61,990 bases of DNA, from NCBI GenBank assembly GCA_964565165.1, contig CAZMDJ010000003.1, forward strand, positions 7,054 through 69,043. Reading direction: 5' to 3'. Positions 34,075 through 60,193 of this stretch are shown in pieces. The notes under the pieces were generated by a model. It was not told the origin of the DNA and made no database searches. It saw nothing but the letters and a program-made list of their open reading frames with translations. Origin of the DNA: an uncultured Actinomycetes bacterium. GTDB taxonomy: Bacteria; Actinomycetota; Actinomycetes; Nanopelagicales; Nanopelagicaceae. The position numbers and the translations under genes were made by a program. Within the stretch, counting starts at the first letter, position 1. Each line of letters opens with the position of its first letter.

Positions 34075-34108
34075 TACCTAACTCCTTTTATTTCTCTTAA
34101 ATTCTCAA

Positions 34109-34756: not shown

Positions 34757-34882
34757 CAGTTCCATCTCTCCCTGTAACTGGTTGTTACAAGGGAATGTTT
34801 TCACTTGCAAAATAAATGAAAAGAAAAAAGGCGAGTGCCAGCCCCAGCCTGGCTATCTACTCAGTCACAGTGATATATGCAC

Positions 34883-34914
34883 AAAGGGCCACCTCTAATG
34901 AGGTGGCCCTTTTA
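34883..34914 (-). terminator. intrinsic terminator downstream of rpoC
   Basis: aaagggccacctc (34883-34895), taat, and gaggtggcccttt (34900-34912) form a perfect 13-bp stem located 20 nt after the rpoC stop. Confidence 0.65.
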
Positions 34915-34931
34915 TGACTAGTTATTTGTAC

Positions 34932-41700: not shown

Positions 41701-42240
41701 AACACCTGGTGAACGAACAAGCTGTGAAACAACAACACGTTCGGTGCCGTTGATTACGAAAGTTCCGCGAGGTGTCATCAATGGGAAGTCGCCCATGAAA
41801 ACAGTCTGCGATTTAATTTCGCCTGTTTCGTTATTCATAAATTCCGCAGTTACGAAAAGTGGAGCTGCGTAAGTCATATCGCGCTCTTTGCACTCGTCTA
41901 CTGCGTACTTTGCAGGCTCGAAGCGATGATCACGGAATGAAAGTGACATCGATCCTTGGAAATCTTCGATTGGAGAGATCTCCTCGAAAATTTCTTCTAG
42001 ACCTGATTGTGATGGTAGTTCTCCACGAAGAGATTCCGGTGAGCTCGCCATACGCTCGCGCCACTCAGCATTACCAAGTAACCAATCAAAGCTCTCACGT
42101 TGTAGAGCAAGAAGGTTTGGTACTTCTAGTGGTTCAGAGATTTTGGCGAAAGAAATACGGCGTGGAGCAGTTTTATTCTTTGACGCGGCCAAGTTATGTC
42201 CTTCCAAGACAATTTTTAAAACATTACGTTTCACATGCAC
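38740..42240 (-). CDS. rpoB: DNA-directed RNA polymerase beta subunit, interrupted by one in-frame TAG at 40689..40687
   Basis: The two track ORFs (40687..42240 and 38740..40533) are in the same frame. The 51 codons between them are open and encode conserved beta-subunit sequence. Rif-cluster [32 protein letters not shown] is present. The N-terminal start is uncertain (GTG 42240, GTG 42234 or TTG 42207). Confidence 0.93.
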
Positions 42241-42516: not shown

Positions 42517-43191
42517 GTGAGTAAAGGGCAGATTCTCGTAGTTGATGATGAACTCGCGATCAGAGAGCTGATCACCGAAGTTCTCAATATCGCTGACTTC
42601 CAGGTCACAACTGCAGCCGATGGCCTTGAAGCGCTAAATCAGGTCCGCAAAACTAAATTCGATCTGATCCTGCTTGATGTGAATCTTCCAAAAGTTGATG
42701 GATTTGCAGTCCTTGAGAAGGTCCGCGAAAGCGCTCCGACCCAGCCAATCATCATGCTCAGCGCTCGTACCAGTAAAGATGACGTAACGCATGGCCTTCG
42801 TTTAGGTGCAGATGATTACATCCGCAAACCATTTAGCGTTGAAGAGCTGGTGCTTCGCGTTGAAAATCGATTGAAACGAAATGGCTCTGATGTGGACACC
42901 GTTTTAAGTTGCGGCCCACTCTCTTTATTTGAAGGCGAACATAAAGTTACTTTCAACGAGAAGACTATTGACCTATCTCCTACCGAATTTAATCTTTTGC
43001 AGGTTCTGCTTCAGAATCAGAATCGCGTATTAACAAAAGAGAAGTTGCTCGATCTCGTTTGGGGTCTTGATTTCGAAACCACCACCAACGTGGTCGATAC
43101 ATACATCTCTTACCTTCGTAAAAAATTACATATAAATGGATTCGAAGGAATTAAAACTGTGCGAGGCGTCGGCTTTAAGTTGGAGTGTTAA
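42517..43191 (+). CDS. OmpR/PhoB-family response regulator
   Basis: The 224-aa ORF has a receiver domain (ILVVDDE...DLILLDVNLPKVDG) and a winged-helix C-terminus (LSPTEFNLLQVL...VDTYISYLRKKL...IKTVRGVGFKL). GTG start. Confidence 0.92.
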   Translation: MSKGQILVVDDELAIRELITEVLNIADFQVTTAADGLEALNQVRKTKFDLILLDVNLPKVDGFAVLEKVRESAPTQPIIMLSARTSKDDVTHGLRLGADDYIRKPFSVEELVLRVENRLKRNGSDVDTVLSCGPLSLFEGEHKVTFNEKTIDLSPTEFNLLQVLLQNQNRVLTKEKLLDLVWGLDFETTTNVVDTYISYLRKKLHINGFEGIKTVRGVGFKLEC

Positions 43192-44339
43192 TGAAGTTAA
43201 GCACGCGCCTAGCTTTAGTTGTCTCTGCGATTCTGGCAATCACTACCATTATTTCTAGCGCTCAATCTGTAATTGTCCACAGGAACGAGAAGCTCAATAC
43301 ATATAGCGATGTACTCAATAACTTAGCTAATCAGCTCGCCTCATCTGATGAGAATGATTTAACTTTTGCGCTGTTCATTGCCGAGCAGAGCCCAATCCCA
43401 ATGTCACTTGCTTACATCTCCCCAGAAGGCCACGCTACTTATTTAACCGAAGCGGCTGGATCTGGGTTAGTTATTCCAACTAAAGAGCAGTACCAGAAAG
43501 GTTTACAAGAACCGCTTCTCTTTAGAGACATCATGGAACGTTTCTACAAAATCGGTAAGAACGAATACATTGGTTTCTACGTATCAATCACTGATTTAAA
43601 TGATGAAATTAACCGTAGCTTTAAGAAAATCCTCTTCTTTAACTTAATTATCATTCTGATCGCTGGTCTCTTAATTACTTTTATTTTCCGCCGCGACAGT
43701 AAGTTAAATAGCGCCGCTAAAGGTATGCAGGAATTTATCGGCGATGCTTCCCACGAACTCAAGACTCCGCTTACTGTTATTCGCGGTTATTCAGAGATCT
43801 TGAGTAACAATCCCGATCAAGGCGAAAAATACGCACGACGAATTCATGATGAATCCCTTCGCATGTCCAGCATCATCGATCAGTTACTAAAGATCGCAGC
43901 ACTTGATGAGGGGCATAAAGAGGAACCTGTATCGATTGATATCGCCGAATACTTAAAGTCTCACATTGAAGATATTTTGATGTTACAACCAAATCGAATG
44001 GTTTCCTTTGTTCCTGAACCATTGATGGTGAAAGCTCCATACGATTTAGTAGACACACTTCTTTCAAATGTACTTACCAATGCACGTATCCATTCACCAG
44101 AAGATGCGCCACTTCTTATCTCTATTACCGGTAAGCAAGTAACAATTGAAGATGGCGGTCCGGGGATGAAAGAGATTCCAGATAAACCATTTATGCGCTT
44201 TGATTCATCGCGTTCACGCAAGACTGGCGGCAGCGGTTTAGGTATGAGTTTGATTCAAAAGTGCGCCAAAGAACTTGGCGCAAAGTTGAACTTCGGTAAG
44301 AGCGATTTAGGCGGTTTGAAAGTAGAGATTACTTTCTAG
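43191..44339 (+). CDS. sensor histidine kinase
   Basis: The protein has two TM segments flanking a ~130-aa extracytoplasmic loop. The H-box is FIGDASHELKTPLTVIRGY, with N and G boxes (NARIHSP; DGGPGM; GGSGLGMSL). ATG 43191 overlaps the RR stop as TAATG; the alternative GTG at 43185 is used by the track. Confidence 0.9.
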   Translation: MKLSTRLALVVSAILAITTIISSAQSVIVHRNEKLNTYSDVLNNLANQLASSDENDLTFALFIAEQSPIPMSLAYISPEGHATYLTEAAGSGLVIPTKEQYQKGLQEPLLFRDIMERFYKIGKNEYIGFYVSITDLNDEINRSFKKILFFNLIIILIAGLLITFIFRRDSKLNSAAKGMQEFIGDASHELKTPLTVIRGYSEILSNNPDQGEKYARRIHDESLRMSSIIDQLLKIAALDEGHKEEPVSIDIAEYLKSHIEDILMLQPNRMVSFVPEPLMVKAPYDLVDTLLSNVLTNARIHSPEDAPLLISITGKQVTIEDGGPGMKEIPDKPFMRFDSSRSRKTGGSGLGMSLIQKCAKELGAKLNFGKSDLGGLKVEITF

Positions 44340-45985
44340 TTTCCAAACCAACCTTGAATTGCACCAACTACATCTGAACCTTTAACAATTAGCACCAAGA
44401 CAAAGTAAACGCAGATTCCAAGTAATCTATATGAATATCTGGTTAGTGCAGTTCGTTGCCAGCTAGATGCATCTCGCTCTGAATTAGCCATTGCATACAT
44501 TGCGCCGATAATCACTGTTGGGATTGTCAGAACCACAAATGCTGATCGCAAATATGTGTATGGATCTTCGATCTGTGATGCCAATACATTTGCGAAGTAG
44601 GTGCCAATTAAAATCATGATTACAGTCTTAACTGCACCGGTTGGCAAGAACTTACCTTTGAATGCAGCTTCTGGAATGTAATGGGTGTATCGCTCGATAA
44701 TTGATGGAAGTACGAATAGAGCTGTACCGATCCAAAGTTCGAGTGAGTTACCGATAAATAGCTCTGCAGTTAGATTAAAGAGAACCGCTCTAAAGACAAT
44801 GACAACTGAGGTGTGACGTGAATGCACATCCTGAGGTTCTGATTCCTCATGTAGAGCGTTTGTACGTACGGGATATCCATAAGTTACAAACTCTTCTAGC
44901 AACATGCGACCAACTAAAACGATAGCCGCAAAGATTGCAATCTTATTTGCCTCAGGCATGATGGTTACTTTGTAGCCAGATAGGCCGCCAAGTGCGTAAA
45001 CCATCTTCTGCACTCCCCAACCCATTAATAAAGCTGCAAGTGCATAGTCAGTTGCACGTTCCCAGAACGAGGCGAAATCTTTAACTTCGCGACGTAATGG
45101 ACGGAATGCACTTGCTAGAAGTCCTGGAACAAACCAGAGCATTACGTAACCGACTGTGGTTAGTAGTGAATGACGAGAATCGATATTTCCCGAAAGGAAA
45201 ACACCGCCAAAATATAGGAATGCAGCGAAGAAACCTGCATAGGCATCAAGTAGACCAATAAGAATTCCGGCCATTGTTAAACCAAGCGTTGCAGGTAGCG
45301 CTTTGAAGTGCGCTGCATGTAGTGCCTGAGAAGCGACAATGAAAGCGGCTGGATAAAGCAGGTAGCTAACTGAACCAATCATTGATCGCAGATATGTGCC
45401 GTCAATAATTAAACGGTGCATCAATGGGCTAAAACGTGAGAACTGAAATGCTGCTAATCCGAATTCGCGATCCGCTAACCCAGTTAATGGAAAGCGCCAT
45501 GTTCTTAGTCGATCTCCCCAACCAGGTTTACGTTTAATTTTCTCTAGTTCGCCTGTCTCAATCGCTTCGAGTGAGCTCTGCTCGACATCGCCTTCTGAAC
45601 TTCCAGAGGTATCTGATTCATTCTTTGAACCACCAACAGCGCCAAGAATAGAAAGCGCTGCGACTGCTAAGCCAGTTGTTCCCACTGGATCATCAGCAGG
45701 ATTAAATGGTGCCAATTCGCCAGGGCATAGGTCGTCCCACTTGATAATTCCTTTTGAAGTTTTGCAGAACTTTAATGTTTGTGTACTTACTACGCCGCTG
45801 TCATCACTAACTTCAATATCTACCTCATGATGTCCAGGCGGTACATCTGCAGGAATTTGAATATCAAGCGCTTCAGCTTCTGATGTTGTTATGCGATCAA
45901 TTAAAACTGTGTCTTTAGCCCAGGAAGGCATCGTAAGAAGCTGTAACCCCACGATTGCTGCAAGCACTAGTAACTTCTTCTTCAT
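44336..45985 (-). CDS. polytopic membrane protein of unknown function (signal peptide, small extracytoplasmic Cys-pair domain, Ser/Glu-rich linker, ~10 TM)
   Basis: The 549-aa ORF begins [25 protein letters not shown]. Its ATG overlaps the giant gene stop (TAATG). Its TAG stop overlaps the convergent kinase TAG within the palindrome CTAG (44336-44339). Confidence 0.75.
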   Translation of the reverse strand: MKKKLLVLAAIVGLQLLTMPSWAKDTVLIDRITTSEAEALDIQIPADVPPGHHEVDIEVSDDSGVVSTQTLKFCKTSKGIIKWDDLCPGELAPFNPADDPVGTTGLAVAALSILGAVGGSKNESDTSGSSEGDVEQSSLEAIETGELEKIKRKPGWGDRLRTWRFPLTGLADREFGLAAFQFSRFSPLMHRLIIDGTYLRSMIGSVSYLLYPAAFIVASQALHAAHFKALPATLGLTMAGILIGLLDAYAGFFAAFLYFGGVFLSGNIDSRHSLLTTVGYVMLWFVPGLLASAFRPLRREVKDFASFWERATDYALAALLMGWGVQKMVYALGGLSGYKVTIMPEANKIAIFAAIVLVGRMLLEEFVTYGYPVRTNALHEESEPQDVHSRHTSVVIVFRAVLFNLTAELFIGNSLELWIGTALFVLPSIIERYTHYIPEAAFKGKFLPTGAVKTVIMILIGTYFANVLASQIEDPYTYLRSAFVVLTIPTVIIGAMYAMANSERDASSWQRTALTRYSYRLLGICVYFVLVLIVKGSDVVGAIQGWFGN

Positions 45986-48900
45986 TACTTACCTTCCTTA
46001 ATTGTTACTTTAACTTTCTGTCCTGGTTTCAAATTTGTCACATTGAATTTTGCATTCGAACCAGAAGTCTTTGGCGTGATATTTACTTTCTTCGCTGCAG
46101 GTTGCCTAGCAGTACTTGCCTTGGGTGCAGCTTGTGCCTTTTCAACAATAGTTACCTTCACCTTTTGGCCAGGCTGCAAATTAGTTACGTTTACGTTTGC
46201 ACTGGTATCTGTGGTCTTAGGTTCAATCTTCACAGGTGCGCTACTTGGCTTAGTTGTTGGAGCCGATGCACTTGCAGATGGTTTAGTAGATGCTGACGCA
46301 CTTGCTGAAGGCTTCGCTGATGCAGATGCAGAGGTAGATGGTTTAGCTGTCGCACTTGCTGAAGGCTTCGCTGATGCAGAAGCGCTTGCAGATGGTTTAG
46401 CAGAAGCTGATGCGCTCGGTGAAGATGATGGCTTCGGTGAAGAAGTTGGTGATGGAGAAGATGAAGGCTTCGGAGTTGCACTCGGAGATGCACTCGGTGA
46501 AGGAGTTGGCTTCAATGTTGGCGATGCAGAAGGCGATGCACTTGGTGTCGCACTTGGTGTTGCACTCGGGGTTGCAGAAGGTGTTGGCATTACCGATGGA
46601 GTCGGTGAAGGTGACGGCGAAGCAGACGGTCTTGGCGTTGGTGTTGGTGTTGTGGGAGTTGATGGAGTTGTTGGAGCAGATGCGCCACCGCCACCGCCAC
46701 CTCCGCCACCGCCAGAGTTATTAGAAGGAGCAGCTGCAAATGTAATTGTTACTGCTGATGAAGTTACAGATCCGTAGGTGCTATCTCCTGCTTTTGTTGC
46801 AGTTGCAATACAAGTACCCGCTCCATTTGCAGTAACCGATCCGGTACTTGATACAGCGCAACCTGCCGCCGTTCCGCCAGTAATTGCGTATGTAATTGAA
46901 CCAGTTCCGCTACCACCAGAAGTTATTAGCGCAACCGGTGTACCTACAGTTGCGTTCGAACCAGTAACGCTTAACGCCGCTTGAGATTGTGCTGCTACGC
47001 CAATAGTCACAACTTTAGATACGTTCTTTACGATGCCACCAATAGTTACCGCTGCATTAATTGTGAATGAAGCAGCAGCCGAAATTGCGGTTGGAGTTCC
47101 AGAGATGGTTCCCATCGCTGGATCGAAAGTTAATCCTGCCGGAAGTGTTCCGGTCAATGAATAAACAATTGAGGACCCAGCTTCTGCCTGAATTGACGTT
47201 GAGATTGGCGTAATTGCATTTCCAACGGATCCGGTAAGAGTCGTAACTGATGTAGAAATTGCAGGATCGGTAATAAAGGTAGTTGATGTAGTTGCGCTAC
47301 CAGTTCCAGCTGAGTTAGTTGCAGTCACAACTGCGTTGTACTGAGTACCGGGCGCTAATCCTGTTAAATTCGCAGAAGTTGTTGTTGAAGTAGTTGTAAC
47401 AGTTGAGCCGGTGTTTACCGGTACCGCACTGATTGAATATTGAGTGATTGATGCTCCACCGGTATTTGTTGGCGCAGTGAAAGTTACATCAGCTGTTGAA
47501 GTGCTGCCGGTTGGCACTGATGCATTTACGCCGCTTGGTGATGATGGTGCACTTGCATTAACACCGATAGTTATTGTTGCCGTACCCGTATCAACTGTTC
47601 CACTTGGCAGAGTGGTTGAAACAGTAATCACAAATTGTGTTGGCGAAATAGCAACAGTTGGAGTTCCAGAAATTTCACCAGTATTTGGGTCCAAAGTTAA
47701 GCCCGCAGGGAGTGGCCCTGCAATTGAATAGGTTGTTCCTGTAGCGCCAAGTGCAACAATTGAAACTGTAATTGGAGTAATCGCTTGATCAATAGTTGTA
47801 GTCAAGCTATTTGTTGATGGAGTGACACCTACTGGAGTAACAATTCGAGTTGAAGCAGTTGTATCCGGGCCGGTTCCTGCTGAGTTGGTAGCTGCAACAG
47901 ATACAACATATTCAGTACCCGGTACAAGATTTGTGACAGTTACTGCTGAACCAATTACTGACGCCGATGGTGTCGCATTAATAATCGTGCCTGATGAGAC
48001 AGGTGTAATTGCAATTGCATATGTAGTGATTGTTGCGCCACCATCGTATGTAGATGCACCAATGTTTACAGCTGCCGTTGTCGCAGTTGGTGTAGTTGCA
48101 GATACTGATGCTGGTGCGCCAGGAACTACAGGATTAACGCCCAATGTAAATGTCGTTGTACCGGTAACAGTCGCACCACCAGTAACCGTTGCTGTCGCAG
48201 TAACAGTAAATGTTGTTGCGTTGATTGCGACTGTTGGTGTTCCAGAAATTTCTCCAGTTGTTGTATCAAGTGTTAATCCTGCAGGTAGCGCGCCGCTTAC
48301 AGAATATGAAACTCCTGTTGGATTAGAACCAGTAATGGCAGCAGAGATAGGCGTGATTGCCTGGCCAACAGAAGCTGTTTCACTTGATGAACTTAATGAA
48401 ACACCAAGCGGAGTTGTGAAGGTAGAACTTTGAGAAGTCGTGCCACTGCCTGAACTATTAGCTGCAGTTGATGTAACTGTGTAAGTAGTACCTGGTGCAA
48501 GTGAAGTTGTCGGTACAGATGTTGAAGTTGTGTTTTCGACAACCGGCGTACCACCGCCAACTGGCGTGAAAGTTGTTTGATAGCCAGTAATTGTTGCGCC
48601 GCCATTTGATGTTGGTGCGGTCAAAACAACTGTTGCTGCAGTTGATGAAGTTGCAGTTGCAGATTGAATTCCTGGAGCAGATGGTGGCGCTGCTGGGGTT
48701 GTAATTGAAGTTGCAGCTGATGTTGCACTTCCCTGACCAACTGCGTTAATCGCTACTGTAGATATTGAATAGGTAGTGCCTGCTGCTAGGCCACTTAATG
48801 TGACAGCGTTTGAAATATCTGCAGCGTTTACAGTTAAGTTAATAGGGGTTCCGCCACCTGTAGGTGTTGCAGTTATCTTGTAAGAAGTGATCGCAGATCC

Positions 48901-51900
48901 ACCGTCAACTGTCGCTGCACCAACCGTTACCGAAGCGGTTGAATAAGTTGGCGCAGTTGCCGAAACAGTTGCTGGAGCACCAGGTACAGTTGCAGGCGCA
49001 ACAGGTAATGAAAGCGCTGAAGCAGTTGAAGAACCCACACTGTTATTAGCAACCACTGAATATTGATAATTAGTTCCGTTTGTTAAGCCAGAGATTCGAC
49101 ATCCGACCGCTGGATCTGTTGCTGTACATGTACCGGCAGATGAACCATCTGGATTCTTCGCTGTAACTGTATAGCTGGTGATTGCAGCGCCGCCAGTTGA
49201 TGAAGGTGCGGTAAATGTAACTGTGGCAGCGGTGTTTTCAACTGTTGCTGTTGGAGAAGTTGGTACGCCAGGTGAAGTTGCTGGTGTTGAAGTTGCTGAG
49301 GTTGATGGCGCTGAAGAACCGGATGAATTCGTTGCAACAGTTGTAAATGAATATGCGGTTCCGTTAGTTAGACCTGCAATTGTGCAACTTGTTGCTGGTG
49401 AAATAACGGTGCAAGATCCGGCGGTTGATCCATCAGGATTTTTTGCAGTAACGGTGTAAGAAGTTGGTATTCCACCACTGCCACTTCCTTGGGCTACATC
49501 GATAGTTACTGAGCCATTGCCTGAAGTTAATGTCTGTGTCGGCGCATCAGGCGCAGCTGGCACCCAAACTGCAGTTAGCGTTGTGTTAGTTGTAGGAGTA
49601 ATTGTCGATTGAGGTGCAACAGTTGTAGATCCTGTTGACCAAGCTGTCAATGCAAATCGAGTTCTGGTGATACCGGTTGTCGGTGCAGTCTGAACGGTTG
49701 TACTTGGTGCAACCAATTGAGTAGATGGCGCAGTACCTGTTGTTGCACCAGCAATTGAATAAGAGACACCAATTAGCGCAGCAGACCATTGCGCAGTAAG
49801 TGTTACTGCATATGCAGGCATGGTGTACGTGCTGCCTGCAGCCATCACGTTTGTGCCGTCGCTCCAACCTAAGAAATTCTTTGTGGCATCTGTATTAGTT
49901 GGAGTTGCTGCCAATGTAAATGTTGAGCCGTACGCAGTATTTCCTTGAGTAGGTACTGAGCCAGTACCACCGGTACCCAAGTCATAAGTAACCGCATATG
50001 AAGCTGCTACCCATTTTGCAGTAAAGGTTACGTCGCGATCAGGCATTGTATAAACAGCACCGGATGCAAAAGGAGCTGCCACATCTAACCAACCATCAAA
50101 GTTGTAACCAGTTCTAGTTGGTATAACCGAAGTTACGGTTACTGAGTCGTTGTAAGAATGCGATGTAGCGCTCAAAGTTGTTGAACTAGTTCCTTGGTTT
50201 AGGTCATAAGCAACGGTGTGGGAATTTGATGTCCACTGAGCAGTAAGAGTTACACCGTTTGGATTTGCAAGTGTGTAATTGGCGCCAGCGCCATAAGTGT
50301 TTGTTCCATCGCTCCAGCCTGCAAAGGCGTAGCCAACTTTGCTAATCGCTGCCGCCAAAGTAATCGTTGTTGTAAATGCACCTGTCTGCGTACTGGTAAC
50401 CAATGTCCCGCCATTGCCTGCATATGTTGCAGTAATTGTCGCTGGTGTCCATTGTGCAGCTAAGACGTAATGGTTATCGCGAACTTGATACGCAGATGCT
50501 GCGGCAACAGTTTCGCCACTTTGATCTTTCCAATTAACAAAGTTATAGCCAGCACGAGTTGGTGTTGCATTTGTAGTGATGTTCTGAAGATCATTACACA
50601 TGTTCCCTGCATTAGCGCATTCACTATCAATATCTGATTCGGCAGGAGTTATAACTGCATGAGTGCCGCCATTTAATACGTATTTAACTACGAAACGTTT
50701 GATCCATTGCGCTGTAAATGTAGTTCCACCATCTTGCACAATATAAGTAGAACCTTCAGCATAAATAGTTCCAGACGTACTCTTCCAGCCAACAAAGGCA
50801 TATACCTGGGTATTTACGGTGACTGTTGCGGAATCAATATTTTGAAGAGTGTAATTCGAACCAAAAGCACGAGTAACCGTTGTAGTTGCAAGAGTTAGCC
50901 CTGATGAAGTGCTTCCATCTACCGTACCTGCGTTGAAGTTAAGGGTTTGATTTGCCGGTGTCCAAATTGCATAAAGAGTTGTATTAGCTGTCGGTGTATA
51001 CGAACCACTAATTACTGAACCTGTTGGAGATGTCGACCACCCAGAAAGCGAGTACCCAGTCTTTGTCATTCCAGATGCATCCGGAAGCGATAAGCCAGTA
51101 CCAGAAGTTGTATATGTTGCTGCGCCATTTGTTGCAGATCCTGTTGCACCATTTGTGTTCCAAGTGATGTTGTAAGTACCTGGAGACCATTGCGCATAAA
51201 GAGTTACAGATTGTGTAGGCGTATACAGACCGCTAATTACAGTTGAAGTTTCAGACCAACCGCTAAATACATAGCCAGCTTTCTCCATTGTTCCAACAGT
51301 TGGCAAGCTTATTGCTGAACTTCCATAAGCAAATGAATCCGATGTGCGCGATGCGGATCCTGTTGCACCGGTATTTGGGTTATAAGTAATTGTGTAAACC
51401 AATGGCGACCATTGCGCTGCAAAAGTTACGTTTGCTGTAGACATGGTGAAAGTCTGTCCAACACTGTAAATCGTTGAACCTGATGCCCAACCAGTAAATG
51501 TATAACCGGTACGAGTTAGTCCTGTTCCGGCTGCAACTGTAAAAGTCTGACCACTTGAATGCGTTGGCTCTGTTGGAACATTTCCTGTTCCGCCATTTGC
51601 ATCATATGTAACCACGTACTGAAGAGCTGTCCAGACTGCAGTCAAAGTTACATTGCTAGCCCCAACAGTGTAAGTAGAACCATATACATATGAAACATTT
51701 GCTTGATCGGTCCAGCCAGTAAATGTGTAACCGGTATTAGATAAACCAGTTCCTGCTGCTACTGAGAAGGTTTGTCCGATGGTCTTGTTGGCCTCTGTTG
51801 GGAGCGTTCCGGTGCCAGAACCGCTATTTACATAAGTAATTGTGTAGCTAACTGCGCTCCACTTTGCGAACAAAGTAAGCGCTGCAGAGGTGCTGTAGGA

Positions 51901-54900
51901 ATCGCTTGCTGCATAGTTTGTACCAGTTCCATCAGCTGCAGTATTCCAACCATTAAATGCGTAACCACTCTTAGTCATTCCCGCAGGAGGAGATGCAATT
52001 GAATAAGCAGTACCGCCAGTTACGAAAGCACCTGTTGTAGGAACGGTAGTTGAACCACCATTTGAGTTATATGTAATTGGATATGAGATTCCACTCCACT
52101 GTGCATATAAAGTGATGTTTGCAGTTGGTGAATATGCAGTTCCGTTTGGCCCAACCAAAGTTCCGCTAGATGCTGCAGTAAACCAACCATTAAATGTGTA
52201 ACCAGGTCGTGTTGGCAGCGGAAGTGTTACCGGAGTTCCTAAATTGAAGTTGGCAGATGTTGGTGAAACTGTTCCGCTATTTGCATCATAAGTAATTACG
52301 TAAGGTGCTGGAGTAACTACTGCACTTGGTGCAGATTGTGCAGAGCTTCCAGCTCCATCATTTGCAGTTGCTTTAAATGTGTAAGCAGATCCGTTAGTCA
52401 ATCCAGCAACTGTGCAAGATGTTGCAGGCGAAGTTACTGTGCAAGTTCCAACTGCATTGTTATTTGAATCGTATGCAGTAACTGTGTATGAAGTTGGTGC
52501 CGGTGCTGAAGGTGCATAAGAAAGAACAATTACACCTGAACCACCAGATGAACCTGCGCCACCACCAGATCCAGTATTGGCTGCACCTGCAGCTTGCACT
52601 CCTGGATAGGCAGTTCCATAACCATTACCACCAGCTGCATAAGTAACTGATGCGCCAGAAATACTTAACGCAAGACCTGCGCCACCAAGACCAGGAGATG
52701 TATTTCCAACAATCGGATATCCGGCAGAGATAGCACCGCCACCACCGCCGCCTTGTAGTGATGCGCTATTACCGCAACCAGGACCACCGGCATTTGCGTA
52801 CATTGCCCAATCAGTAAAAGTTGCTTGCGTTGGCGTTCCGCCAGCATTCAAAGTACACGTACCTGATGGCGCATAACCACCGCCACCAGAACCACCGCTT
52901 GTTCCACTTGCACTTCCGCCGCCACCGCCTTTAGCGGTTACAGATGCAAATACTGAATCACCACCACTTGCACCAATAGCTGTAGATGTATTTCCAGTTC
53001 CACCAGCTCCAACTGTCATCGATAAAGTCGAACCAGGCGTAACTGAATAAGAAGGATTGTAAAGAAGTCCGCCGCCGCCGCCGCCACCGGCGTTGCCTCC
53101 CCAACCACCACCGCCGCCACCGCCAACTACAAGAACCGCCATGTTTGTTACGTTGGCAGGAACTGTGACAGTTGAGCTACCGGTAGTAGTAACTTTATAA
53201 ACACAATTTCCATTTGTTAAAACGAATGGAGAAACACAAGATACTGATCCATTTGTAACTGAAACAGTCGCAGTTGTATTACCTGCAGTAGCCGAGACCG
53301 TTGGAGCCGCTGGAACCAACATAGTCCACTTTGCATAAATTGTTGTATCGCCAAATAAGGTAATAGTTGCACCATCAATATATGGAGTACCTGTTCCATT
53401 TGCTGCTGTTGTCCAGCCATCAAATGCATAACCTGCGATTGCAAAGGTTCCGATATTGATATGGAATGCCTTGCCTGCAGTAAAGGTTTGTGTCGCCATT
53501 GTGCCCGAAGCTGTTGTTCCTGCTACGGCATTTGAATTGAAGGTAAGTGTGTAGTTATTTGCATTCCAAATTGCATAAAGCGTTGTGTTACCCGTCGGGG
53601 TCAATGTTGTGATTGAAGTAGTGCCTGCAGCAGTAGTCGCCCACCCACCGAATGAATAGCCAGTCTTTGTCATAGTTCCGACTGTCGCAAAAGAGGTAAT
53701 TGCCGCACTGCCATATGTGTAATTCTGAGTAGCTACAGACGCAGTACCTGAACCGGCATTGTTTGAATAGGTAACTACATAAATCTGAGCTGTCCACTGC
53801 GCATATAAAGTAATTGCGCCATACAGTGTTACTGACTGCTTATCTGTGTAAGAAGTACCAGTTCCACCTGCAACCGTATTCCAACCATTGAAGGTATAGC
53901 CGGTGCGGGTAAATGCATTTGCATTGATTGTGAAAGCGGTACCAGCAGTAAAGCTCTGATTAGTCATGGTGCCAGCACCAGAGTTAGCGTTGAAAGTTAT
54001 GGCATATGTATTTGCGCTCCACTTTGCATAAATCGTCATTGCTGCATACAAAGTTAAAGATTGTGCATTTGTATAAGCGGCACCTGTGCCATCCGCATTA
54101 GCTGTCCAACCTGAGAATGTGTAACCAGTGCGAGCAATCTGAGTTGTGTTACTTGTTAAAGCAAGCGCTGTACCTGCTGTATATGTCTGGTTCGCAATTG
54201 TTCCAGTACCACCATTTGCATTAAAGGTAACTGCAAATGTTGTTGCCTGCCAGACTGCGTACAAAGTGATTGATCCAGTTGGTGTGTAGCTTGCACCTCC
54301 AGCATATGCTGCGGTTGTTGCAGTGCTTGTAGTCGCCCAACCTAAGAAGTTATATCCAGTCTTAACCATTGTGCCAACAGTTGCTAAATTGACAGCGTTG
54401 CTAGAAGTTAATGACATCGAAGCAACTGAAGGCGCACCCGATGACGGTGTTGATCCTAGATTTGCATTAAATGTAATTGTGAAATTCCATTGGGCATAAA
54501 GCGTGATATTTCCTGCGCCAGTGTATGAAGCACCAACCGCATAGTTGGTTCCACTGCCATCTGCTGCAGTATTCCAACCACTAAATGTGTAATTAGTTTT
54601 AGCAAGCGTTCCACTATTTGTTGCCAATGTTCCAGCGATGCTATTTACAAAGTTTGTTGGGTAAGGAATTGTTCCGCTGGTTGCGCCGTTCGCGTTGTAA
54701 GTAACTAGCGAGTTCCATTGAGCGTAAACCGTAACATTGCCTGTAGGTGAAGTTAAATATGTGTTGAAAGCTGAACCAGTTGCAGCATATGTAGGGATGG
54801 CAGGAGTTGAAGTTGTGATTCCGTACTTCTCTTTTAGGAACATCTCGACTTGCAACACTTCTGCAGCTGTTAAAGTGCTGTTATAAATCACTAAGTCAGC

Positions 54901-57900
54901 CAGTTGCCAATCTGAATATTCGCCAGAAACCCCGTTATTTACCGAAATATTGGCAGGCAAGTAAGTAATAGTTGAGGTTGCATTATTTTTTGCTAAACCG
55001 TCATAAATTAGGTTATTTCCATAATCACAAATTACATGAAAACTACTATCAGCTACGTTAGTGGATGGAGTTATCCAACCGTTGTGATACGCAACTCCAA
55101 CGTGGCCTGCATAAAAACCAGTTAGCCAATTAATGTTTGTGGCATCAATTAATCGACCTTTAGTTACTCCCGAATATCTGGCAACAAAACAAAGCGTGTA
55201 ATTCGTTAATTGGGTGTTTGGCAGAACAAAGCCAGATGTGCTCGCGCCACTTAAAACACTTATAGATTTAGAAGTTCCATTTGCAACCGCTACTGAAGCT
55301 ACCGTTGGTGTACCTCTGATTGAAGTTGAATTTCGTCCATTTCCAGATTGATCAAGCATAATTCGGTTTACTGAATCCCAAGAGTTTGCGTTGTATTGCA
55401 AATACGGCGCAGGCAACATCGGTGGATTTACGCCAAACAAAGTTCCACTGCCGGTTGCAGAAGTATTCCAACCGGAAAATGTGTAATTTAAAGTGGAATT
55501 TGTTTTGGCAAGTGAACCAACATTTCTAGATAATAGAACATCTTCTGTCGCGCCCGTTATAGTTTCAGAATTTGGAGCAGTTCCGGCTGTATTTGTATTT
55601 CCATCATATGTAAGTGTGTATGTCCACTTGGCATACAAAGTTAATGAAGAAGTTGGCGTGTAACTTGTACTTGCCGCTATGTCGGTACCACTTCCATCTG
55701 CCGCAGTGTTCCAGCCTGCAAATGTAAATCCGCTTCGAGTAGCACCTGCTGCGGTTGTGATTGCGGCATCTGGTGCACTTTGAGTAACAGTTGAATTGGT
55801 TCCTGAACCACCATTCACATCAAAAGTAACAGTTAGCGCTTTATCAAAAGCAATGATGATGGTTCCTGCGCCACCTGCACCGCCACTTGCGCTTCCGGCT
55901 GAGCCACCACCACCGCCACCACCTTGACCATCAATACCTGCAGATCCAGCAACGGCTGCTGCAATGTAATTTCCGCCATTGCCGGCGCCATTGAATAGCA
56001 CACCAGTTCCACCAAGACCAATGTGAGTTCCTGAAAATGGTGAGTTGTATCCGCCGCCACCGCCACCGGAGCCGTAAATAACTGCTTTTCCGCTAATTGA
56101 ATTTGTAGTTCCTAATAAACCATTACACATAACGCCATATTGAGCGGTCGGTCCGGCGCCACCCATTGCACCATTTGCAGTTGTTCCGGTACCACCAGCT
56201 GTCTTGCCAGGCGTAGTGCAATTTGCTGCACCATTTCCCCAAGTTGCGCCACCTGCTCCGCCAGTTGCTGAATAAGTTGTTGCGCCAACTGTAATTGTCG
56301 AAGCAGAACCTGCTGTTGCTGGAGCACCACCTGCGCCAACCGTTAAAGATAAAACTTGCCCTGGTGTAACTGAAACATTTGTAGCTGCAGTTAAGCCACC
56401 ACCACCACCACCGTTACCAACGTTCGCACCGCCACCGCCACCGCCACCAACCACCAATAAATCAATAGAAGTTACGCCTGCAGGAACCGTGTACGCGCAC
56501 GCGGCTCCTGCAGGAAATTTAATTACTTGATTACCACCACCAGTTGAAGTCGTTGGAGAACAATTCAAAGTCCAAATCGCATATAAAGTTATATTTCCAG
56601 TTGGCGTATAGCTTGAACCAGGCACATAACTTGTTCCCGATCCGTTTGCAGCCGTGTTCCAACTAGTAAACGTGTAACCAGATTTAACCATTGTGCCAAC
56701 TGTTGCAAGATTAATTGAAGCACTTGGCAAAGCAGATATGGTCGCTTGCGATGCAGTACCAGAAGTAGCGGTATTGATATTGAAAGTAACTGTCGCGGTC
56801 CACTTTGCATACAAAGTTATGTTTCCGCTAGAAACGTATGACGCACCTAAAGCATAGTTAGATCCTGATCCATCCGCCGCAGTGTTCCAACCAGATAATG
56901 TGTAACCTGTTTTTAATAACGTAGTTGGATTAGCTAAATTAAATGGAGCGGATCCTTTAGAAGTGTATACCGCTGGTACCGTACTTACTACGGAAGTATT
57001 TGTATTTCCGCTATATGTAATTGTTGAATTCCATTGAGCGTATAAAGTGATATCGCCAGGAGATGAGTATGTTGCTAAACCTGCCGCATAATTTGTGCCG
57101 CTTCCATCAGCTGCAGTATTCCAACCTGTAAATGTAAATCCGGTACGAGTTAAAGAACCTGAATTCGTGGCTAAAGTTGTAGTAGCGGCTATTCCCACTG
57201 CAGTTGTTGGATTTGGAGCCGTCCCGGCATCTGAATTATTGTCATCGTAAGTTATCGTGGAATTCCATTGGGCATATAAGGTTAAATTTCCCGTTGGGGT
57301 ATAGGTATATCCCTGTGCATAATTTGTACCAGTTCCGTTTGCCAAGGTATTCCAGCCAGTGAAGTGATAACCAGTTTTTGTGCCTGCATAATTAGATTCA
57401 ACTGTTAAATCAGAAATTGGGCTCGTTTGAGTTTGGGTTGCCGGAGCGGTACCAGTGCCACCATTTACATTGTATGCAAGTGTGAATTTAACTAACGGGG
57501 CACAACGTGCAGCCAACTGATCAAACCAAAGATTCGAATAAGTACTCTGTCCGATCATTACATCGCCGGAATTACACAACATGCTTGCAGTCAATGTTTG
57601 CGTCGTATGAGTAATCAATTTTGGCGATGCTTGAGTTGCAATCAAATCAGTCTCAGCGCCAGCATCATTTAATAAAGGTAATGTTTTGCATTTAAGACCA
57701 ATATGAATTCCACTGGAATTTATCGCTTGATATCCAACTGCGGCCATACCATCTGGACAGAAAACGTAGTTTGCAGTTGCACGTAAAGTTGCTGATAGCG
57801 GGCTGACAGTTAGATCTGCATTCAAAGGTGCACACTTATAACCATTAACCATTGGGTTTTGGTTATAAGTTATGCCTACGACTACATTGTCAGCGGCACA

Positions 57901-58074
57901 TGCGCTAGGACCGTTGTAATTGCCTCCACCAAATACATACCAGCTCGAATCGTATGCAGTGCCTAAACGAGCAGCTTTCGCACTTGGAGCGCTTATTGAA
58001 ATAAACAAGAATGGGGCTATTAAAGTTGCTACTACTAGCCTCGTTACGGTGCGGAAACGCGAGCTGGCAAGCAC
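45985..58074 (-). CDS. giant (4029 aa) secreted mosaic repeat protein, candidate cell-surface or adhesin-like protein
   Basis: A single uninterrupted 12,090-nt ORF. The GTG start is preceded by GGGGGTG. A signal peptide is followed by arrays of Listeria-Bacteroides-type (InlB B-repeat/Flg_new-like) repeats, two Gly-rich domains, a LamG-like module, FN3-like and Ig-like modules, and a Pro/Ser/Ala/Thr linker. No LPXTG or C-terminal TM was seen. Confidence 0.9.
46225..46735 (-). repeat. poly-Gly (G10) followed by a Pro/Thr/Ser/Ala/Lys low-complexity tandem-repeat linker
   Basis: [42 protein letters not shown]...[48 protein letters not shown]. At nucleotide level a 30-nt exact repeat cgcacttgctgaaggcttcgctgatgcaga occurs twice about 54 nt apart (~46298 and ~46352). 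Confidence 0.85.
46990..49560 (-). repeat. FN3-like modules (about 6 here, plus one at ~52303-52519) alternating with three Ig-like 'GxISGTPT' modules
   Basis: FN3-like example: [36 protein letters not shown]. Another: [14 protein letters not shown]...[23 protein letters not shown]. Ig-like (He_PIG-like by memory) example: [42 protein letters not shown]. Confidence 0.65.
49564..52302 (-). repeat. Flg_new-type repeat array 4 (about 12 copies, more degenerate)
   Basis: Units end LYAQW, LFAKW, LTAVW, FAAQW, LYAQW, LYAIW, FTAQW, LAAQW, LTAQW, FTAKW, LTAQW, LTAVW. Core motif G[YF]xFxGW is retained. Confidence 0.75.
52520..53240 (-). other. glycine-rich domain copy 2 (approx)
   Basis: [80 protein letters not shown]...[12 protein letters not shown] is collinear with copy 1. 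Confidence 0.55.
53320..54799 (-). repeat. Flg_new-type repeat array 3 (about 7 copies)
   Basis: Successive units end VYAQW, LYAQW, LYAVW, IYAKW, LYAQW, LYAIW, IYAKW. Confidence 0.8.
54815..55425 (-). other. LamG/concanavalin-like lectin-type module (approx)
   Basis: The segment lacks the repeat motif: [17 protein letters not shown]...[11 protein letters not shown]...[12 protein letters not shown]...[20 protein letters not shown]...[33 protein letters not shown]. The ending is typical of Laminin_G_3-like domains as I recall them. Confidence 0.5.
55431..55844 (-). repeat. Flg_new-type repeat array 2 (about 2 copies, the second truncated)
   Basis: [13 protein letters not shown]...[17 protein letters not shown]...LYAKW, then [17 protein letters not shown]...[18 protein letters not shown]. 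Confidence 0.75.
55845..56565 (-). other. glycine-rich domain copy 1 (approx)
   Basis: [79 protein letters not shown]...[13 protein letters not shown]. It resembles my recollection of the Pfam Gly_rich family (ALK/LTK-type polyglycine). Confidence 0.55.
56566..57492 (-). repeat. Flg_new/InlB-B-type repeat array 1 (4 copies, approx coordinates)
   Basis: The ~70-75-aa units begin like [TV]xYxxNGGTG and end GY[TH]F[TS]GWNTxA[ND]G[ST]GTxY...[LF]YA[QKI]W. Confidence 0.8.
57973..58074 (-). other. signal peptide of the giant protein
   Basis: [34 protein letters not shown] | ARLG has a basic n-region, a hydrophobic core and an AKA-A cleavage motif. Confidence 0.7.
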
Positions 58075-58269
58075 TTTTTCACCCCCGCGCTAGAGAAATA
58101 ATGACCGAAATTTGTCCGGCAAGTGCTCAATTCTTTTCTATAGCTCGTGCAGGTGAAAACTGAAATCACCCTTTTTGGGGTGATTAGATGGGGCGAAAAT
58201 TAACCTGCAATTTTTTGTAAATTTTCTTAATTTATAACTTTTTAACTTTTAATTTTTTTATTACAAAAG

Positions 58270-58301
58270 AAAAACCCCGACCGTGGAGGGCCGGGGTTTT
58301 T
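58270..58301 (-). terminator. intrinsic terminator downstream of rplL
   Basis: ccccgacc (58275-58282), gtggag, and ggccgggg (58289-58296) form an 8-bp stem with 1 mismatch. It is flanked by A5/T5 runs. On the minus strand the hairpin is followed by TTTTTCTTTT. Confidence 0.7.
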
Positions 58302-58348
58302 CTTTTTATCAACTTACTAGGGTGCAAGTTGAAATTTATTAAAGGTAA

Positions 58349-58735
58349 TTACTTGATTGTTACCTTTGCGCCAGCTGCTTCTAGAGCTGCCTTTGCCTTG
58401 TCTGCAGTTTCCTTGTTTGCCTTCTCAAGAAGTGTTGCAGGTGTTGCATCAACTAGATCCTTAGCTTCCTTCAAGCCAAGAGCTGAGTTAAGTGCACGTA
58501 CTTCCTTGATAACTGCAATCTTCTGTGAGCCTGCATCTTCAAGAATAACTGTGAACTCATCCTGAGCTGCAGCTGCGTCTCCGCCACCTGCTGCTCCGCC
58601 TGCTGCTGCAACTGCTACTGGAGCTGCTGCTGTTACATCGAATTCTTCTTCGAATGCCTTTACGAAATCTGATAGTTCAACAACAGTCATTTCCTTGAAT
58701 GCTGCCATTAAATCTGCTGATGATAGCTTTGCCAT
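58349..58735 (-). CDS. rplL: 50S ribosomal protein L7/L12
   Basis: The 128-aa ORF begins [34 protein letters not shown], has an Ala/Gly hinge, and ends KEAKDLVD...[11 protein letters not shown]. Confidence 0.98.
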
Positions 58736-58765
58736 TTTTATATTTTCCTTTGTTTCTTAGCTGAA

Positions 58766-59410
58766 TTACTCTGCTGGTGTTTCAGCTGCTTCTGCAACTG
58801 GTGTTTCTGTTTCGGTTGCTTCTGCAGCTGGTGCTGCTTCTGCTGGTGCAGCTTCTTCAGCAGCTGGTGCTGCCGCCTCTGCTACAGGTGCAGGTGCAGC
58901 TTCTTCAGCCTTTTCAGTTGCTGGTGCGCCTGCTTCTAGTTTGATACGTAACGCATCGAAGGTGCGAGCGGCCTTAGCCATTGTGCCCTTCATAGCGCCA
59001 GCCAACTTAGACAATAGAACTTCGCGTGATTCAAGATCAGCGAGCTTCATAATCTCTTCAGTTGAAACTACTTTGCCATCGAAGACGCCACCCTTGATAA
59101 CAAGTAGTGGATTCTCCTTCTGGAAATTCTTAAGAGCCTTAGCGGCTGCAAGTGAATCTCCCTTAATGAATGCAACTGCTGAAGGACCCTTTAGTAGAGA
59201 ATCGTCGATCTCTACGCCAGCGTTCTTTGCTGCAATCTTGGTAAGGGTGTTCTTAACAACCGCATACTTTGTTTCCATACCTAGTGAGCGACGAAGAGTC
59301 TTCATCGCACCTACGGTAAGACCGCGGTATTCGGTTAGCGCAATTGCATCCGAAGATTTGAAATCTTCAGTTAATTCAGCAACTGCCGCTGCCTTATCTG
59401 GGCGAGCCAT
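58766..59410 (-). CDS. rplJ: 50S ribosomal protein L10 with a ~50-aa Ala/Glu/Pro-rich C-terminal extension
   Basis: The start is at ATG 59410 ([33 protein letters not shown]), preceded by AAAGGTGA. The track ORF adds 3 codons. Confidence 0.95.
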
Positions 59411-59566: not shown

Positions 59567-59594
59567 AGTCTAAAAGGTGTCCTCCATTTTGCAA
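59567..59594 (-). promoter_or_regulatory. candidate sigma-70-type promoter for rplJ-rplL
   Basis: The minus strand reads TTGCAA - 16 nt - TAGACT (alternatively TTTGCA with a 17-nt spacer). Confidence 0.4.
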
Positions 59595-59598
59595 AATC

Positions 59599-59663
59599 GC
59601 GGAAAGCTGAGCTCGGGAAAGGCCGCAACAGAGACGCGAGCTTTCCCTGCGCTCACTTTCCGC
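59599..59663 (-). terminator. extended ~20-bp imperfect hairpin abutting the rplJ promoter (probable terminator of the upstream membrane-protein unit)
   Basis: Pairings are gcggaaag/ctttccgc (59599-59606 with 59656-59663), tgagc/gctca, and gggaaag/ctttccc (59615-59621 with 59641-59647), with a 19-nt loop. On the minus strand it is followed by GATTTTG. Confidence 0.4.
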
Positions 59664-59825
59664 TGCGCAAAATGTCGGCCATAGACCGGGGCTATTTGGG
59701 TGCGATTAAGAAGTGGAGCCCCAGCCACCACCAGATGATCAAGATGGCGATGCGGGTAGTTCGGAAAGTCAGCAGGTGGCGGATTAATTTGGCCGATGCC
59801 GGGCGGCGCCATTGGAATATGAAAG

Positions 59826-60188
59826 CTATAGAGCTAAATTAATTTCTCGGTTATTTAGATTTTTCTGGTCGCCGCTATTTCGACGCCAAAGTGCTACGAA
59901 CATCAAAATGAAGAGCGCATAGAAAAGATATTTACCAAGATTACTTTCGCGTTTTAAGAAGATTGTAACGACACTAAAAACTGGCAGCGTATAAATTGCT
60001 ACTTTTCTGAGACCTTTAAATTCTGGAACCCAATCCAGCAATCCGACACTTTCAAGAATTACTAAAAGAAGTGCGATTCCAAAGTAGATTAAATCTGGAT
60101 TAAAACCGCGATAAAGCTGAAAAATGAAATTTACCGAAAAGACAGCAATCCATAAACTTACAGATTGAAATCTTCGTACTTGATTCAT
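59826..60188 (-). CDS. small integral membrane protein, unknown function (about 4 TM)
   Basis: The 120-aa hydrophobic ORF starts 5 nt downstream of the antiporter gene stop. Confidence 0.55.
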   Translation of the reverse strand: MNQVRRFQSVSLWIAVFSVNFIFQLYRGFNPDLIYFGIALLLVILESVGLLDWVPEFKGLRKVAIYTLPVFSVVTIFLKRESNLGKYLFYALFILMFVALWRRNSGDQKNLNNREINLAL

Positions 60189-60193
60189 TTCAA

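Follow-up and report, generated by a model that had tools for sequence, protein, structure and literature searches.

How a secreted protein of 4029 residues can be held on a bacterial cell when it carries none of the familiar surface anchors is the question raised by a gene in the rplL-rpoB interval of an uncultured member of the Nanopelagicaceae (the acI lineage), the dominant and most abundant bacterioplankton of fresh water. The gene was analyzed in a 61,990-nucleotide stretch of contig CAZMDJ010000003.1 (assembly GCA_964565165.1), the whole of which is referred to as the window. It is a single open reading frame (ORF) at positions 45985-58074 of the minus strand, has no internal stop, and starts with a GTG 7 nt downstream of GGGGGTGA. 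An earlier note on this DNA had described the product as a secreted mosaic of repeats and left its mode of attachment unclear. That note overlooked the adjacent gene, which is translationally coupled to the giant gene and encodes a polytopic membrane protein of 549 residues, called the partner below, and this gene probably answers the attachment question. The best explanation of the giant ORF is that it is the cargo member of a surface-display cassette of two genes, one specific to the Nanopelagicaceae and widespread among them. A short module at the C-terminus of the cargo, the tag, and the incomplete immunoglobulin-like (Ig-like) ecto-domain of the partner appear to be two parts of one split domain; the probability that the giant protein is held on a dedicated membrane anchor through this domain is put at roughly 0.6.

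The giant protein was scanned for known means of attachment. No LPXTG-type motif was found near its C-terminus (LPXT[GAS], LAXTG and NPQTN were sought), the single NPNTG being internal at aa 2232. The last 300 residues contain no hydrophobic segment (maximum hydropathy 0.89), and SLH, LysM, choline-binding and type IX secretion system (T9SS) C-terminal domains were absent from the Pfam matches of the whole protein. These scans agree with the earlier reading that LPXTG, a C-terminal transmembrane helix and choline-binding, SLH and LysM motifs are all missing. When the isolated tag was searched against Pfam, only scattered sub-threshold matches to beta-hairpins were obtained, for example to LysM with E 0.003 and 17.9 bits (cut-off 20.9).

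The partner begins with a signal peptide and an acidic ecto-domain of ~70 residues that contains a Cys pair; a first helix, a disordered acidic loop and about ten further helices follow. Its Shine-Dalgarno sequence, AAGGAAGG, lies within the last codons of the giant gene, K-E-G-K (45985-46010), and this dual coding may explain the K/G-rich tails that follow the tag at other loci. Because the partner has its own signal peptide, its ecto-domain is expected to be extracellular, like the C-terminus of the cargo. The partner family comprises 69 clusters at E<=1e-93. Weak matches of the ecto-domain to DUF4625 and Big_13 were obtained for 10/14 and 6/14 family members, respectively, and the membrane domain matched no Pfam or NCBIfam family, either in the partner and 14 family members or, with Pfam, in six of the fused homologs described below. 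The invariant residues of the membrane domain are D247, N267, R271, R295, R298, R299, E309, R310, D313, Y314 and E364. In the AlphaFold2 (AF2) model of the partner, the predicted local distance difference test score (pLDDT) was 70 overall, 80-94 in the membrane part and 52-69 in the ecto-domain alone; a low-confidence ecto-domain beside a confident membrane part is consistent with an incomplete domain. Foldseek searches of the PDB with the AF2 models of the split partner and of a fused homolog returned nothing better than E 0.03 and a template-modelling score (TM) of 0.2 (TM<=0.18 for the split partner). The membrane domain has no Pfam, NCBIfam or PDB relative; that it is a new family is a proposal that, taken jointly with the anchoring system, is given slightly less than even odds.

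The association of tag and partner was examined in both directions. Among 60 loci from genomes and several from metagenomes, a same-strand ORF nearly always precedes the partner gene and often overlaps it. The upstream ORF ends in [NG]LKPGQK[IV]KVT[IV]K plus a short tail in 51 of 52 loci across the Nanopelagicaceae; at these loci, the start of the partner tblastn match lies -4 to +62 nt from the cargo stop and the partner identity is 33-97%. These tagged cargo ORFs, which range from ~230 aa to more than 3300 aa, have unrelated N-terminal parts and a low-complexity linker before the tag. They are usually giant, many extending past the 10-kb flank at >3300 aa, and some are small (230-740 aa); three minimal cargos consist of a signal peptide, a linker and the tag, with nothing else. 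In the reverse test, a degenerate DNA pattern for the tag was scanned over metagenome contigs. Of the 80 loci recovered, 11 were unrelated proteins with an internal motif and 69 were true C-terminal tags, and the partner was found directly downstream of 67 of the 69, the other two being explained by a contig end or a tandem arrangement. Moreover, the tag motif occurs at one position only when all six frames of the window and of the long loci are read.

Tandems of the form cargo-cargo-partner were found at five loci (L089, L109, L129, L144 and L147). The tail of the first cargo is ...NVRPKP or ...NVKPRP, the second cargo, of ~1540-2005 aa, ends in ...NVKGK, and one partner follows; the L129 contig stops 33 nt past the second tag. 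In such tandems one anchor may serve two cargos. The cassette occupies different chromosomal sites in different lineages, and none of the viral contigs encodes a partner. Cultured Planktophila strains with the cassette include IMCC26077 and LanE-43, the latter with two cassettes. The cassette can be defined by (a) a tag after a low-complexity linker, (b) a partner directly downstream on the same strand, and (c) the partner features, namely a signal peptide, an acidic ecto-domain with the motif PPGxHxVxIEV and a membrane domain with the motif WERxTDYA. The window shows all of these features.

A profile of the partner family was then used to search 1.84 billion representative proteins. It matched 786 clusters, 516 of them at E<=1e-30, with homology of the membrane domain reaching E 1e-100 and below. 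Many of the matches are proteins of 800-5995 aa in which the membrane domain is the C-terminal part. These fused proteins carry signal peptides together with FN3, Big_3_5, RCC1, LRR and Gly_rich_2 modules, and they also contain the nested ~200-aa module of the giant protein and, by reading, the Cys repeat of its head. One clade comes from freshwater Rhodoluna and Aquiluna, and all members are annotated as hypothetical. The fusions are Rosetta-stone evidence for placing the membrane domain at the membrane-proximal end of a surface protein. In about two dozen fused proteins examined, an Ig-like domain with the consensus ...AGASVTVSGSGLAPGSEVEVVVHSTPVLLGSVTTDADGSFSASLELPASLEAGNHTLQVNG... is situated immediately before the membrane part. 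Since elsewhere the membrane domain is fused and the Ig-like domain intact, the acI arrangement is taken to be the split form of a family of membrane-anchored surface proteins. The fused proteins P0122, P0175 and P0190 resemble the window in the membrane domain, the preceding Ig-like domain, Gly_rich_2, FN3, the ~200-aa module and the Cys head. However, they are single polypeptides, whereas the Nanopelagicaceae chain is cut inside the Ig-like domain and the cargo and the partner each have a signal peptide.

A separate group of relatives consists of P0238, P0273 and ~40 freshwater proteins of the Microbacteriaceae type, which have ~360-380 aa and comprise the membrane domain alone; some are encoded on contigs of 88-241 kb. 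These short proteins may be products of stand-alone membrane-domain genes without an ecto-domain.

The correspondence between the split and the intact forms was analyzed with a hidden Markov model (HMM) built solely from the Ig-like domains of 25 fused proteins and tested on 24 acI pairs of tag and ecto-domain. All 24 tags aligned at model positions ~4-37, and all 24 ecto-domains aligned at the C-terminal part of the model, mostly at ~52-95 (35-86 in L022). When the tag and the ecto-domain were joined, 22 of the 24 pairs were recognized as one domain with roughly additive scores of up to 32 bits. The two pairs that do not join as one domain are that of L061 and the window's own, the halves of which align separately (tag 6-33, ecto-domain 41-86). 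In five pairs checked by column, the last residue of the tag and the first residue of the partner fell in adjacent match columns. A shuffle control (200 shuffles each) gave p<0.05 for 23/24 tags, with the median p at the floor of the test. The mean charge of the split forms was +4.9 for tags and -7.1 for ecto-domains, as compared to -1.0 and -3.3, respectively, for the equivalent segments in fused proteins. Furthermore, the least basic tag (L069, nearly uncharged) pairs with the least acidic ecto-domain, likewise nearly uncharged. The split forms have thus acquired opposite, complementary charges. In the AF2 model of a fused homolog, beta-strands were predicted for both the tag-equivalent and the ecto-equivalent segments.

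A mechanism can be proposed in which the cargo would be exported by Sec via its N-terminal signal peptide and its C-terminal basic beta-hairpin would supply the two missing N-terminal strands of the partner's incomplete acidic Ig-like ecto-domain. Complementation of the split domain would tether the giant protein to the membrane, the 150-aa S/P/A/T/K linker would cross the cell wall, and the FN3, He_PIG and Flg_new modules would form a long stalk presenting the variable Cys-rich head. Wall-spanning linkers occur in other Gram-positive surface proteins, and low-complexity linkers comparable to that of the giant protein precede the tag in other loci. We infer the physical binding, the wall-spanning role of the linker and the surface display from the sequences.

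Several observations weigh against this proposal. All of its support is computational. The individual scores of the tags against the HMM are weak (2-11 bits); they gain weight because the register is consistent and because of the shuffle control. The Ig-like region of the AF2 model of the fused homolog has a pLDDT of ~50-72, in part below 50, and the Ig-like fold of the intact domain is putative. Among the 52 partner loci, L030 (8680-8900) is the only one lacking a tagged upstream ORF: a 484-aa ORF ends ~150 nt before the partner start codon, and the cargo may lie elsewhere or have been lost. The duplication of the tag has no role in the tethering model. Additionally, a domain of ~11 helices with invariant charged residues kept to distant Actinobacteria goes beyond the needs of a passive anchor. 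Its size and conservation indicate that the partner probably has a further activity outside the tethering model; the membrane domain probably does more than anchor and may have a catalytic or transport activity of its own. The broader proposal, that the Nanopelagicaceae show strain-variable giant proteins through a previously unrecognised split-Ig anchoring system whose membrane domain is used as a fused anchor in Actinobacteria, is held tentatively, at a little below an even chance.

The strict pairing of tag and partner in both directions is also found in dedicated sorting systems, and the many invariant polar and charged residues of the membrane domain, shared from acI to distant Actinobacteria, are more than anchoring requires. 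It is possible on these grounds that the tag is a sorting signal and the partner an enzyme analogous to sortase, exosortase or rhombosortase that recognizes the tag and cleaves it, or covalently attaches the giant protein to peptidoglycan, lipid or glycan. However, the tag has neither the hydrophobic helix nor the basic tail of -CTERM and LPXTG signals, and its alignment is to strands that form part of an Ig-like domain. No Cys or His is invariant in the membrane domain, and the only invariant Ser residues there (183, 205 and 292) have no His partner; H53, C74 and C87 are located in the ecto-domain. There was no Pfam or NCBIfam match to any sortase or exosortase family, and the domain is found fused in cis to its would-be substrates. 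An enzymatic sorting system is considered unlikely. A role as a transporter or flippase that aids the giant protein indirectly, for instance by exporting glycan for the S/T/P-rich linker, would make the adjacency of the genes a reflection of a shared pathway. The best fold matches of the partner, none of them significant, are indeed MFS, flippase and other transporters (E 0.03-1, TM<=0.2), and a family member is called 'MFS family permease' in one JGI record. Yet these fold matches are at noise level, and a transporter would hardly account for the C-terminal fusion to surface proteins, for the collinear mapping of tag and ecto-domain on one Ig-like domain, or for a charge complementarity that is restricted to the split forms. 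An indirect role of this kind is thought improbable, and a similarly small share is left to explanations other than those weighed here.

A further alternative is that the giant ORF or its placement is an artefact of assembly or binning, or that the ORF is a decaying pseudogene. An in-frame stop interrupts the essential rpoB gene of this record, so the sequence is not error-free, and many metagenome contigs end within the giant gene; the earlier note had itself raised the collapse of the repeat arrays during assembly. However, the 12-kb frame is open throughout, and by our own estimate the odds of 4029 stop-free codons at 46% GC are ~e^-190. The DNA repeats in the giant gene have at most 87% identity over at most 81 nt, which makes assembly collapse unlikely. 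Five contigs from five different assemblies (L011-L015), retrieved via a 97%-identical relative of the downstream partner protein, run collinear to the window for 6.4-11.9 kb with an identity of 94-98%, the junction between the giant and partner genes included, and L011, L014 and L015 also share the junction to the histidine kinase gene. The seeming 3006-aa giant of L012 was traced to a scaffold gap of 100 N. Moreover, the rplL-side junction is a clean breakpoint at the terminator, and a different allele (L010) occupies the same site with a ribosome-binding site (RBS) and start region that, by reading, are alike. An artefact is effectively excluded, and this alternative as a whole is given next to no weight. 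The giant gene is real: the uninterrupted 12-kb ORF described previously was recovered, and the assembly is sound.

The location of the gene after the rplL terminator (58292-58273) and behind an AT-rich leader of 190 nt indicates that it is its own transcription unit. No sigma-70-like promoter was matched in 57900-58800, which includes the leader, and there was no Rfam family match and no tRNA anywhere in the window. Two hairpins in the leader (58185-58164 and 58120-58104) have a possible regulatory role.

The host was evaluated from two lines of evidence. The RpoC protein falls in a cluster (at least 90% identity) named Candidatus Nanopelagicaceae, and the genomic relatives of the partner gene are all Nanopelagicaceae/Planktophila genomes or metagenome-assembled genomes (MAGs), bar a few evidently mislabelled bins. 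Both support the streamlined actinobacterial host that had been supposed. In contigs with an identical RplL, the gene order is rplJ, rplL, a histidine kinase and response regulator pair on the other strand, rpoB and rpoC. The rplL-rpoB interval of the window holds this kinase and regulator pair in addition to the giant gene and the partner gene. When L001, L002 and L005-L009 were compared to the window by blastn, the base matching 58266 was directly joined to the base matching 44339, and the window therefore carries a clean insertion of 13,926 bp. The insertion lies between the T-run of the rplL terminator and the stop codon of the histidine kinase gene, and the empty site reads TTTCTTT/CTAGAAAG, where the slash marks the junction. 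No target-site duplication was found at the junctions, and the insertion contains no ORF beyond the two genes, no tRNA and no recombinase. The earlier note set the gene against the direct succession of rplL and rpoB in most bacteria. In this lineage the two genes are not adjacent in any case, as the two-component system is located there in all relatives, and the unusual element is the clean two-gene insertion.

Strain variability, previously no more than an inference, is demonstrated by relatives that have near-identical rplL, rplJ and rpoB genes and no giant gene. These relatives are 100% identical to the window in rplL (L008, 99.7%), 99.5-99.8% in rplJ and 99.3-100% in rpoB, and ~90% (90.5%) and ~85% identical in the response regulator and histidine kinase genes, respectively. 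An identity gradient that falls toward the junction fits allele replacement by homologous recombination, and the cassette was probably gained or lost via homologous recombination in its flanks. Contigs that bear the giant gene showed mosaic identities. Within that gene the value was 99.5% for the 4 kb at the 3' end, 97% for the middle and 77% for part of the 5' region; the partner gene had 93.7%, and the parts of the kinase gene covered by these contigs had 89-100%. At the site behind rplL, the more distant contig L010 carries another allele (900-2129). In this allele a PA14-like head replaces the Cys-rich one and the Flg_new repeats are very similar to those of the window, which suggests that head domains are swapped. 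In L074 (MAG PPR_0137; 9-1094 and 2525-7682), the partner gene ends ~1.4 kb upstream of rplJ-rplL-rpoB, and the cassette is thus on the opposite side of rplJL in the same neighbourhood. The microdiversity of the Nanopelagicales has been explained by cell-surface functions that vary under pressure from phages and grazers (PMC12817590). On the basis of this literature and of the strain variability, the ecological role of the giant protein may be adhesion to particles or polymers, or that of a variable target or shield in interactions with phage or grazers; the target role had already been suggested in the earlier note and continues to be conjectural.

The response regulator and histidine kinase pair itself (42517-44339, plus strand) is far more diverged than the flanking rplL and rpoB. 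Either the recombination tracts end in this region or the sensor itself is under diversifying pressure.

The architecture of the giant protein was mapped with HMMs built on its own repeats, together with Pfam, NCBIfam and motif counts. Pfam identified Flg_new (21 matches), Flg_new_2 (5), fn3 (7) and Gly_rich_2 (2). PF09479 Flg_new scored 612.6 bits over 21 stretches and TIGR02543 265 bits over 20 stretches, which places the repeats in the Listeria-Bacteroides family. The scores of fn3 (196.9 bits, 7 stretches) and Gly_rich_2 (91.6 bits, 2 stretches) were above the gathering score, and an isolated GxISGTPT module matched He_PIG with E 8e-13 and 49.1 bits. The HMMs made from the protein itself resolved 24 Flg_new units in four arrays (4, 2, 6 and 12), 7 FN3 and 3 He_PIG modules, and the motif counts gave 24 cores and 24 terminal [LF]xA[QK]W motifs. 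Most of the architecture read by eye in the earlier note was thus recovered, including the signal peptide, the Cys-containing N-terminal domain, the four arrays, the two Gly-rich domains, the approximately seven FN3 modules, the three GxISGTPT modules (now He_PIG), the G10 tract, the linker of ~150 aa and the duplicated C-terminal module. The count of ~25 repeats is corrected to 24. The Cys-containing Ig-like module could be located, although its only match, to Big_2, is weak. The label of a LamG-like module is unsupported: for aa ~886-1057, no Pfam family was matched at E<=10, and no PDB match was obtained by sequence or by a four-sequence profile.

The Cys-rich head had no Pfam match, and the 5 fragments returned by a homolog search did not suffice for a useful model. 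The identity of the head to the N-terminus of the IMCC26077 cargo is 27%, and Cys repeats of the head type were also seen, by reading, in the fused-anchor proteins P0089/91/94, P0175 and P0190. The module nested in array B separates two HMM matches of a single repeat (818-885, model positions 3-56, and 1058-1120, to model position 75). Modules in P0175 and P0190 share 33-38% identity with this nested module, which is a real recurring unit. The first FN3 module is covered by its HMM at model positions 12-90 only, at aa 1831-1918, and its strand A was placed by reading at aa ~1587-1612. The linker of 150 aa contains 49 S, 37 P, 30 A, 21 T and 9 K residues. Duplicated tags are also present in L098, L105, L107, L132 and L139. 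The coordinates of all features are collected in Table 1.

Table 1. Features of the giant gene, the partner gene and the insertion that carries them (window coordinates; aa, residues of the giant protein unless the partner is named).
Feature	Coordinates	Strand	Basis or remark
Strain-specific 13,926-bp insertion (giant gene, leader, partner gene)	44340..58265		blastn of L001/L002/L005-L009
rplL terminator	58273..58292	-	insertion begins right after its T-run
AT-rich leader/promoter region of giant gene, ~190 nt	58075..58265	-	two hairpins
Sec-type signal peptide, aa 1-34, ...SAPSAKA/A	57973..58074	-	read from translation; the only strongly hydrophobic segment of the giant protein
Cys-rich head, aa 35-194, three C..G..hhG...C repeats, 6 Cys	57493..57972	-	
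Flg_new array A, 4 repeats, aa 195-501	56572..57492	-	Pfam, self-HMM
Gly-rich domain 1, aa ~502-743	55846..56571	-	Gly_rich_2, 2 stretches; self-HMM aa 521-743
Flg_new array B, 2 repeats, aa 744-1120; second split by nested module	54715..55845	-	
Nested ~170-200-aa module, aa ~886-1057, inside one Flg_new repeat	54904..55419	-	no family match
Flg_new array C, 6 repeats, aa 1121-1583	53326..54714	-	self-HMM
FN3 no. 1, aa 1584-1918, apparently interrupted by Gly_rich_2 (1629-1853)	52321..53325	-	
Flg_new array D, 12 repeats, aa 1922-2837	49564..52311	-	self-HMM
Stalk, six FN3 and three He_PIG, aa 2839-3686	47017..49560	-	Pfam, self-HMM
Stalk FN3, aa 2839-2928, 2935-3023, 3031-3122, 3131-3218, 3318-3409, 3510-3599			
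Stalk He_PIG, aa 3216-3305, 3408-3497, 3597-3686			
Cys-pair Ig-like module, aa ~3690-3785	46720..47007	-	weak Big_2 match, E 0.3
G10 tract, aa 3788-3797, and 150-aa S/P/A/T/K linker, aa 3798-3947	46234..46713	-	
Internal copy of tag module, aa 3948-3979	46138..46233	-	
Terminal tag module, aa 3997-4029, basic beta-hairpin (putative)	45988..46086	-	matches strands A-B of the Ig-like domain of fused relatives
Partner gene, 549 aa	44336..45985	-	ATG overlaps the TAA of the giant gene (TAATG)
Partner ecto-domain, partner aa ~25-95, acidic, incomplete Ig-like (putative), Cys pair C74/C87	45701..45913	-	net charge -8
Partner polytopic membrane domain, partner aa ~96-549, ~11 helices	44339..45700	-	

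Other parts of the window also vary between strains. A second strain-specific island, of low GC (41-43%), follows rpoC directly at ~29522-34931; L001 and L002 lack it. The island encodes an MMPL-family transporter (29465-31438, plus strand) and three ORFs of 550, 310 and 233 aa without a Pfam match, the last of which has, by reading, a signal-like hydrophobic segment at its N-terminus. The 550-aa ORF (31458-33110) was considered as a second copy of the partner and found to be unrelated to it. Between rplA and rplJ, at 59570-61336, lie a gene for a Na+/H+ exchanger and two short ORFs of 120 and 80 aa without a Pfam match. All three genes are present in L001, the exchanger and a single 134-aa ORF in L002, and none in L003, in which rplA is followed by rplJ; the interval is another variable insertion in the ribosomal-protein neighbourhood. 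The stop codon in rpoB (38740-42240) is an in-frame TAG at 40687-40689 on the minus strand that divides the gene between ORFs of 517 and 597 aa. Relatives have GAC AAG GTT in place of the GAT TAG TTT of the window, which amounts to three changes to T within 7 nt. An error in the recorded sequence is the likeliest cause; a genuine TAG would be a nonsense codon in an essential gene.

A portable module of cargo, tag and proposed anchor bears much of the surface variability of acI and is probably swapped by recombination even within the rplJL-rpoBC core. If the tethering model is correct, it would also offer an answer to how large actinobacterial surface proteins without a recognizable anchor stay on cells, a gap raised in a survey of fibrillar adhesins (PMC8286594). 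The tag motif and the WERxTDYA membrane domain can serve as search handles for freshwater metagenomes. A natural Ig-like pair, split so that two strands are donated and carrying complementary charges, could be of interest for protein ligation or display. The tag, the partner, the split-domain arrangement and the membrane-domain family are absent from Pfam, NCBIfam, PDB and the literature searched, in which nothing on the tag or the partner was found; the acI genome papers searched by keyword do not mention giant genes. An experiment would have a substantial chance of establishing a new anchoring mechanism.

In the survey of fibrillar adhesins, nearly half of the proteins had no known anchor, and it was suggested that new anchors remain to be found (PMC8286594). 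The giant protein resembles the fibrillar adhesin-like proteins of Gram-positive bacteria in its signal peptide, distal head, stalk, low-complexity spacer and C-terminal anchor function. Unlike them, it has no LPXTG, SLH, LysM, choline-binding or single-helix anchor, and its attachment is proposed to occur via a separate polytopic protein. The LPXTG/sortase, PEP-CTERM/exosortase, GlyGly-CTERM/rhombosortase and T9SS systems likewise combine a short C-terminal element on unrelated, often huge secreted proteins with one linked membrane protein. In contrast to those systems, the tag is a hydrophilic basic hairpin without a membrane helix, the partner is unrelated in sequence, and fused forms exist; the link is proposed to be a non-covalent strand complementation, not a transpeptidation. 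The features of the exosortase, archaeosortase and rhombosortase systems are also missing, there being no helix in the tag, no Pfam or NCBIfam match for the partner and no invariant Cys or His in the membrane domain.

Completion of an Ig-like fold by another chain has precedents. In the donor-strand complementation of chaperone-usher pili and in SpyTag/SpyCatcher, an incomplete Ig-like fold is completed by a second chain and the resulting link is very stable. The arrangement proposed here differs in that there is no homology to either, the acceptor ecto-domain would belong to a polytopic membrane protein of a monoderm, the donor would contribute two strands instead of one, and no isopeptide chemistry is indicated. 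Taken by itself, the giant protein is another strain-variable giant repeat surface protein, a known kind. Genomic islands of planktonic bacteria hold strain-variable giant genes, such as that of Synechococcus SwmB and the giant genes of Polynucleobacter. Like these, the gene in the window encodes a very large repeat protein in a small genome, is present or absent between near-identical strains, and has mosaic identities. Unlike them, it comes with a defined anchor partner and a tag, and its site lies within the rplJL-rpoBC neighbourhood.

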